NCBI GenBank assembly: GCA_036703255.1
Contig: DATNPL010000240.1
Location: 1-16,471 of the forward strand
Reading direction: 5' to 3'
DNA length: 16,471 nucleotides
Source: Coleofasciculaceae cyanobacterium
GTDB lineage: Bacteria > Cyanobacteriota > Cyanobacteriia > Elainellales > Elainellaceae
This document shows, in pieces, positions 7,897-8,064 of the stretch. The notes under the pieces are model-generated. The model ran no database searches. It was not told the DNA's origin and worked only from the letters and a program-made list of their open reading frames with translations. The position numbers were made by a program, and so were the translations under genes. Each line of letters begins with the position of its first letter. Within the stretch, counting starts at the first letter, position 1.

Positions 7897-7897
7897 T

Positions 7898-7943
7898 GAT
7901 AGCGCTTTTTTGAGAATCTATCTCAACATGATAGCGCTATCAT
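7898..7943. promoter_or_regulatory. candidate operator: perfect 16-bp palindrome ATGATAGCGCTATCAT (7928-7943) plus upstream half-site copy TGATAGCGC (7898-7906) in the gor/rhodanese divergent intergenic region
   Basis: Seen directly. 7928-7943 is self-complementary over 16 bp. An identical 9-bp half (TGATAGCGC) recurs 31 bp away and abuts the gor start codon on the other strand. The position fits a dimeric regulator controlling gor and/or the rhodanese gene. Confidence 0.45.
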
Positions 7944-7995
7944 CTTAACAGGGTGAATGATGGGCAGCATGGATAATGAACAACATAAAGGATAA

Positions 7996-8022
7996 AAATT
8001 ATACTCTGGCAAATTATACTCT
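7996..8022 (+). promoter_or_regulatory. tandem direct repeat AAATTATACTCT x2 (7996-8007 and 8011-8022), each containing a TATACT -10-like hexamer, upstream of the rhodanese gene
   Basis: Seen directly. Two identical 12-mers are separated by GGC, 43-69 bp upstream of the 8065 start. TATACT is one mismatch from the sigma-70 -10 consensus. Confidence 0.35.
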
Positions 8023-8064
8023 CGCCACAGTAAAGCTTTCTGTCAGCAATTCTAGGAACTCCAA

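Follow-up and report, generated by a model that had tools for sequence, protein, structure and literature searches.

A candidate two-site LacI/GalR-type operator between gor and a rhodanese gene in a Coleofasciculaceae cyanobacterium

The spacer between the divergent gor (glutathione-disulfide reductase) and rhodanese genes of this cyanobacterium holds a perfect 16-bp palindrome (O1, ATGATAGCGCTATCAT) and, abutting the gor start codon, a partial copy of it (O2), and the occurrence of the two together is non-random. Judged by its sequence and geometry, O1 is a LacI-type operator of the standard kind. The original prediction had proposed an ‘undescribed operator’ here, a description that no longer applies, as the exact 16-mer lies as a standard LacI/GalR-family operator beside LacI-family genes in many unrelated bacteria. 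Our preferred reading, to which we assign a probability of roughly 35 per cent, is that O1 and O2 form a LacI/GalR-type two-site operator that acts mainly on gor; the rhodanese operon is a less likely target. At most, this would be a known kind of operator, unusual in its host and in its target. Throughout, ‘the window’ denotes the whole stretch of DNA that was analysed (16,471 nucleotides).

Repeats in the gor–rhodanese spacer

The spacer is 168 bp long and contains four sequence features: the palindrome, a 10-nt copy of part of it, an inner inverted repeat, and a tandem duplication. Their positions, together with those of the flanking genes and putative promoter elements, are as follows.

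6562–7896, minus strand: gor, glutathione-disulfide reductase, 444 aa (NCBIfam NF004776, 562 bits against a cutoff of 480)
7896–7911, no strand: O2, partial copy of O1, 16-mer TTGATAGCGCTTTTTT, matching O1 at 12 of 16 positions
7910–7926, minus strand: inner inverted repeat TTGAGA-ATCTA-TCTCAA, between O1 and O2
7918–7929, minus strand: mini-ORF of three codons, ATG TTG AGA TAG, beginning within the right arm of the palindrome, with AGCGCTATC in front of it as in front of the gor ATG
7928–7943, no strand: O1, perfect 16-bp palindrome with a central CG, identical at 9955–9970 of the related locus L081
7996–8025, no strand: tandem 15-nt duplication, copies identical at 14 of 15 positions (read from the sequence)
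8003 to 7998 and 8018 to 8013, minus (gor) strand: perfect TATAAT candidate −10 hexamers, overlapping the TATACT pair
8000–8005 and 8015–8020, plus (rhodanese) strand: TATACT hexamers (read from the sequence)
8065–8553, plus strand: rhodanese-domain protein, 162 aa (profile match)

The gor start codon is the ATG complement at 7894–7896, and the gor protein is 92 per cent identical to P0001. On the other side of the spacer, the rhodanese gene is the first of a conserved pair with a TIGR04283 glycosyltransferase gene, after which comes a convergent DUF547 gene; the same rhodanese–TIGR04283–DUF547 arrangement is present at three other loci (L081, L085, and L086). The window is cyanobacterial in character, with HIP1 sites (GCGATCGC) on both sides of the spacer region.

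The rhodanese–TIGR04283–DUF547 cluster occupies positions 8065–10012 of the window, 7866–9810 of L081, 4001–5949 of L085, and 4001–5932 of L086. Its glycosyltransferase scores above the cutoff of TIGR04283 (‘arsenosugar biosynthesis’ glycosyltransferase), and the best match of its rhodanese is NF045521 (‘rhodanese near glycosyltransferase’), at a score below the cutoff. The rhodanese may be a Cdc25/rhodanese-type glutathione-dependent reductase linked to the neighbouring gor.

O1 lies where it was originally reported, at 7928–7943, and is the sole perfect palindrome of at least 14 nt in the 16.5-kb window. From its centre, the distance is 40 bp to the gor ATG and 130 bp to the rhodanese ATG, with O1 upstream of both genes. 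The 10-mer TGATAGCGCT occurs twice, at 7929–7938 within O1 and at 7897–7906, where it touches the gor ATG; this second occurrence supplies O2 with one exact half-site plus the central GCGC. The original prediction correctly had a half-site abutting the gor start codon, although its 9-mer lies at 7897–7905 and not at 7898–7906, and the full repeat extends to 10 nt. The centre-to-centre spacing of O1 and O2 is 32 bp in the window and 31 bp in L081. The spacing of about 31 bp given originally is that of the relative; the 32 bp found here matches a published preferred distance and agrees with the predicted anatomy of two sites for a dimeric regulator.

A palindrome of this length has little weight by itself: a perfect 16-nt palindrome arose somewhere in the window in 216 of 1,000 block shuffles. 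A palindrome accompanied by a 10-nt copy within 100 nt arose in none of the 1,000. Taken in isolation, then, the palindrome counts for little as evidence, and chance does not account for the pair. The anatomy of O1 and O2 together partly supports a two-site operator for a dimeric helix-turn-helix regulator, as a candidate only. Neither O1 nor O2 recurs elsewhere in the window at up to one mismatch. Further O1-like sites, at up to four mismatches, were found neither in about 60 kb of the same organism (of which about 43 kb was sampled via the multi-copy IS66 and IS256 transposases) nor in 21 kb of the relative, and the recurrence of the motif in the same genome that was originally expected is therefore not seen in those 60 kb.

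The tandem repeat, originally described as a duplicated 12-mer with TATACT in each copy, is indeed a duplication carrying that hexamer twice, but its unit is 15 nt: AAATTATACTCT followed by a variable 3-nt tail, GGC at 7996–8010 and CGC at 8011–8025. Each unit also reads as a perfect TATAAT on the gor strand, which had gone unnoticed. A scan of the rhodanese strand returned the promoter-like TGAACA-17-TATACT, and a scan of the gor strand returned TTCACC-18-TATCAT, the −10 element of which is inside the palindrome. For gor, the promoter predictions point in two directions, as the TATAAT boxes (7998–8018) would place both arms of the hairpin discussed below in the transcript and a −10 element within the palindrome would not.

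Comparison with LacI/GalR-family operators

[quoted passage not shown] O1 (ATGATAGC/GCTATCAT) is 16 nt long with a central CG, and its positions relative to gor (40 bp) and the rhodanese gene (130 bp) both fall within the 30–140-bp range. The distance between O1 and O2 coincides with the 32-bp peak here and is 1 bp short of it in L081; O2 itself shares only 12 of 16 positions with O1 (10 of 16 in L081). Use of the sequence as an operator beside LacI-family genes is seen in other organisms only. Targets in carbohydrate or nucleoside metabolism, which are typical of the family and not strictly defining for it, are missing from the flanks, which consist of gor and the rhodanese–TIGR04283 glycosyltransferase operon. 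O1 is also a perfect fit to TGWNANCGNTNWCA, which we take to be the classical LacI/GalR cre-type frame. Among all possible 16-nt palindromes, only about 0.4 per cent fit the TGNNANCGNTNNCA frame.

An exact search of a metagenome collection with the 16-mer returned at least 120 loci. Since the organism's own locus is not among the matches listed, these matches are uninformative about its genome. Among the 120 matches listed, 28 have the N-terminus of a LacI-type helix-turn-helix gene within 400 nt of the 16-mer, and every one of these genes reads away from the palindrome; seven further loci have such a start within about 1.3 kb. Of 77 viral loci that carry the 14-mer only, used as a control, one has a LacI-type neighbour. 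All eight of the LacI-type neighbours tested contain the Pfam LacI (PF00356) and Peripla_BP domains. Their best NCBIfam matches are the LacI-family GntR, IdnR, and RbsR, with one protein above the GntR cutoff. A homologue search with one operator-adjacent LacI protein retrieved Clostridia only, which makes one subgroup clostridial.

A second near-copy lies 21–60 bp from the 16-mer at 11 of the 120 matches listed, and the secondary sites at real LacI loci match at 14–15 of 16 positions, against the 12 and 10 of O2 in the two cyanobacteria. At those matches listed that have no LacI gene nearby, the recurrent flanking genes read as MFS transporters, Gfo/Idh/MocA oxidoreductases, glycoside hydrolases, and TctC-type binding proteins, assignments that are provisional. 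Among the 120 matches listed, LacI is the only transcription-factor family with enrichment next to the 16-mer; TetR-like and LysR-like looking ORFs appear twice each. A literature search on the motif string recovered only an oligonucleotide from M.HhaI crystallography and a paper on streptococcal CcpA, the latter being the reason for the comparison with cre and LacI sites.

Within one high-GC group of these loci (L179, L241, L273, L266, L168, and L283), the pair of 16-mers separates a LacI-family (GntR-like) gene from a divergently oriented gene that begins MISEQDVQAYKRDG.

Among known systems, the spacer is most readily likened to LacI/GalR operators, especially the GntR/IdnR-like ATGTTA-N4-TAACAT and the CcpA cre site. 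The likeness extends from the 16-nt even palindrome, the central CG, and the frame to the −40 position and the 32-bp partner distance, as in the family statistics (PMC4052901), and to the exact 16-mer upstream of LacI-family genes at metagenome loci, some of them with a second site. The spacer differs from these systems in its cyanobacterial host, its non-sugar flanking genes, a second site that is only a half-site, and the lack of a cognate gene in the window, its flanks, and the fetched loci.

In the mechanism that we propose, a dimeric helix-turn-helix repressor of the LacI/GalR type would bind O1 as a full-strength symmetric site. O2, with one perfect half-site and the central CG, would serve as a weak auxiliary site on the same helical face at a distance of 32 bp. 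Read towards gor, O1 and O2 both come after the conserved tandem TATAAT boxes and before the start codon, and a repressor bound at O1 and O2 would, because of that placement, block gor. The block could be a roadblock in the leader, or else occlusion of the weaker promoter whose −10 element (TATCAT) is inside O1, and a small-molecule effector would lift the repression. An explanation at the DNA level also accounts better for the perfect dyad symmetry, because the palindrome's own RNA hairpin is worth only −4 kcal/mol.

We infer that a cognate LacI-family protein would be present in this cyanobacterium, bind here, and have gor as its target. The family occurs only sporadically among cyanobacteria (PMC10775510). 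Neither the window nor the flanks of about 20 kb in the two species contain a LacI-family gene; the only regulators there are TetR and PadR genes several kilobases away. Likewise, a tblastn search with LacI helix-turn-helix domains found none in 830 kb of fetched, mostly cyanobacterial loci, and neither the 60 kb of this organism nor the 21 kb of the relative encodes a cognate PF00356 regulator. Two further points count against a LacI-type operator: gor and the rhodanese gene are not sugar-catabolic genes, and the best-conserved −10 boxes would put the transcription start about 50 nt upstream of O1, an arrangement that is not the most frequent one for a repressor.

Were a LacI-family repressor to control gor, the family would reach a non-sugar redox target in a phylum where it is rare, and a link between carbon or NADPH status and the recycling of glutathione would be suggested. 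With the element confined to two uncultured species and no regulator found in the loci searched, its value at present is that of a cheap, testable lead.

A leader hairpin and other explanations

The same repeats can be read at the RNA level, an option that was not part of the original prediction. Transcription from the tandem TATAAT boxes would give gor a leader of about 95–110 nt, in which a predicted stem over the start codon might set or regulate translation or mRNA stability. In the modelled structure, the palindrome contributes UGAUAGCGCU, which pairs with AGCGCUAUCA immediately ahead of the AUG. The outer 10 bp join positions 7933–7942 with 7897–7906, the inner 6-bp hairpin (7910–7926) serves as a cap, and AGA/UCU pairing around a bulged AUG lengthens the stem. 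Translation of the three-codon mini-ORF, begun inside the palindrome, could open it. We regard such control as possible, if doubtful; a functional hairpin would amount to lineage-specific translational control of gor.

Folding calculations argue for the hairpin. The gor leader has a minimum free energy of −21.4 kcal/mol (z = −4.5), none of 200 shuffled sequences is as stable, and, in both species, no other start region among the 56 compared folds as strongly as that of gor. In L081, the hairpin is retained at −19.1 kcal/mol (z = −2.9), with a 6-bp helix in a shifted register making up for three changes in the inner stem, and the mini-ORF is retained as well (ATG TTG GGA TAG) with its stop codon. 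A hairpin would also explain why the copy abuts the ATG. It leaves the perfect dyad symmetry unexplained, however, and its stability score is a built-in consequence of the inverted repeat for which the region was singled out in the first place. The z-score is only −1.6 in a longer, 121-nt context, and RNAalifold finds no compensatory pairs in an alignment of two sequences, in which the inner stem of L081 is kept only via the register shift. The window as a whole has no Rfam match at the gathering score, and at lenient thresholds positions 7800–8150 give chance-level matches only (E above 1). If gor instead starts from TTCACC-18-TATCAT, the 5′ arm is not transcribed.

In its stable stem, which pairs the 10 nt before the AUG with an upstream segment, the predicted structure is similar to start-codon-occluding hairpins of 5′ leaders, such as translational operators and RNA thermometers; it differs from them in having no family match and no covariation support. 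Its −21 kcal/mol also exceeds by far the stability usual for RNA thermometers. A switch at the RNA level, with the self-hairpin of the palindrome alternating with the long stem, was rejected because the two are so unequal (−4 versus −21 kcal/mol).

The leader hairpin and the LacI-type operator are not mutually exclusive. We consider it improbable, though, that both apply in full, that is, that this cyanobacterial gor is under a LacI-family repressor responsive to a sugar or sugar acid via a two-site operator, the transcribed copy of which also folds over the gor start. If it were so, one sequence would act at both the DNA and the RNA level and tie thiol-redox capacity to the supply of carbon or NADPH.

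A further explanation, which we hold to be somewhat unlikely, dispenses with a dedicated function altogether: the palindrome would be a product of chance, its copy a product of local mutation (template switching at quasi-palindromes, or slippage), the conservation a matter of recent divergence, and the likeness to LacI operators a coincidence. Footprinting of orthologues covered 80 gor loci from genomes, along with further gor and rhodanese loci obtained via protein look-ups. In two JGI assemblies of the same organism (L083 and L084), the spacer is identical. Outside this organism, the motif is present in a single species, represented by a groundwater Oscillatoriophycideae MAG (L001, L081, and L082) whose gor is 92 per cent identical; the expectation that relatives would carry the motif near gor or the rhodanese gene is thus borne out in one related species, and the motif is absent at all more distant gor and rhodanese loci examined. 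At L085, the divergent gor–rhodanese pair is kept around a 730-bp spacer that lacks it.

The spacers of the window and L081 are 86 per cent identical. O1 is unchanged between them, O2 retains 9 of the 10 positions of its repeat (10 of 16 as a 16-mer), and the 10-nt −10 core AATTATACTC is unchanged in both tandem copies. Several of these numbers suit an absence of function: conservation of the full 16-mer between the two species is not significant alone (P-value of about 0.08), a 23-nt identical run between the spacers is expected by chance about half the time, and a perfect 16-mer palindrome appears in 22 per cent of shuffled windows. The restriction of the motif to these two species, and the lack of a cognate regulator in the loci searched and of other sites in the 60 kb and 21 kb, agree with it too. 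Against it stand the palindrome with its 10-nt copy, which the 1,000 shuffles never produced, and the distribution of changes: 3 mismatches in the 50 nt of the four features versus 21 in the 117 nt of the remaining spacer (Fisher's exact test, one-sided; P-value = 0.03), with all indels outside the features. The rarity of 16-nt palindromes that fit TGNNANCGNTNNCA, combined with a partner spacing of 32 bp that is typical of the LacI family, also speaks against coincidence. The pattern of substitutions is modest evidence that the four features are under constraint.

A match with two mismatches upstream of gor in Microcoleus was dismissed as chance, as it is not kept among Microcoleus strains. 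Elsewhere among the relatives, the gor genes of Microcoleus and Tychonema (L013, L011, L023, L045, L008, and L037) are preceded by roughly 300 nt of AT-rich sequence in which a TATACTCTAATAATGGGAGTG block is conserved; in L013 (at about 3790–3860), this block is within a near-perfect inverted repeat of about 26 nt (TAATAATGGGAGTGTGACTATTTTTA/TAAAAATAGTCACACTCCCATTATTA). In the more distant relative L086, three tandem AAGCTTTCACTTC-like units are found directly upstream of the rhodanese gene (at about 3945–3990). The block GCAAATTCTAAGCTTT of L086 is common to L085 and partly to the window (8046–8060).

Least convincing, and in our estimation quite unlikely, is a regulator from outside the LacI family that responds to redox state, thiols, or persulfide (for example, of the ArsR/SmtB, Fur/PerR, or MarR type) and co-regulates gor and the rhodanese operon. 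The pairing of a thiol-redox enzyme with a divergent rhodanese gene recurs in L081 and in L085 and would suit such a regulator; in L085, however, the gene pair occurs without the motif. The outer arms of O1, TGATA and TATCA, presumably resemble those of the 7-1-7 boxes of the Fur family. By sequence comparison, O1 shares with Fur, PerR, and Zur boxes (TGATAATNATTATCA) these arms, a putative dimeric repressor, and a redox or metal theme that would suit gor, but its geometry is an even 7-0-7 and its centre, AGCGCT, is GC-rich where theirs is AT-rich. No regulator gene of these types is adjacent in either species, and only the LacI family is enriched beside the 16-mer among the 120 matches listed. 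For the responsiveness to redox or thiol stress that was originally suggested, nothing was found in support, and co-regulation of the rhodanese gene is not supported either, with the palindrome about 130 bp upstream of its ATG and beyond the likely −10 box.

Several other identities were rejected on spacing: OxyR sites (ATAG-N7-CTAT repeats), PadR sites (ATGT-N8-ACAT), the SmtB/ArsR 12-2-12 repeat, and tetO. The 10-mer does not recur elsewhere in the window, and a relation to the termini of its IS elements is considered unlikely.

Other features of the window

Across an IS66 transposase, the window connects sequence that belongs to two separate JGI contigs of this organism (10257–11606 and 12150–15348; L083, L288, and L290). 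To the right of the IS66 copy, contig Ga0436440_066 runs into pgl, TrkA, and Na/H-exchanger genes, and the window instead follows contig _183, with a gene resembling that of the major vault protein (MVP) and an IS256-type transposase gene. The junction reflects either strain variation or an assembly join via a multi-copy IS, of which at least four copies were seen.

The JGI annotation of the same contig calls no gene in the roughly 1.1 kb between positions 4640 and 5778, and we found no tRNA, Rfam family, or internal repeat there. The MVP-like gene (12150–13880) encodes a protein of 576 aa with weak matches to the shoulder and repeat domains of the major vault protein and to SPFH/Band 7, and it is flanked by transposase genes. 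Two adjacent genes at 1245–2942 and 2988–4637 encode C-terminal EF-hand calcium-binding domains on unusual partners, a metallophosphatase/5′-nucleotidase in one and a urea transporter (UT family) in the other, and a nucleoside hydrolase gene (166–1152) adjoins the pair.
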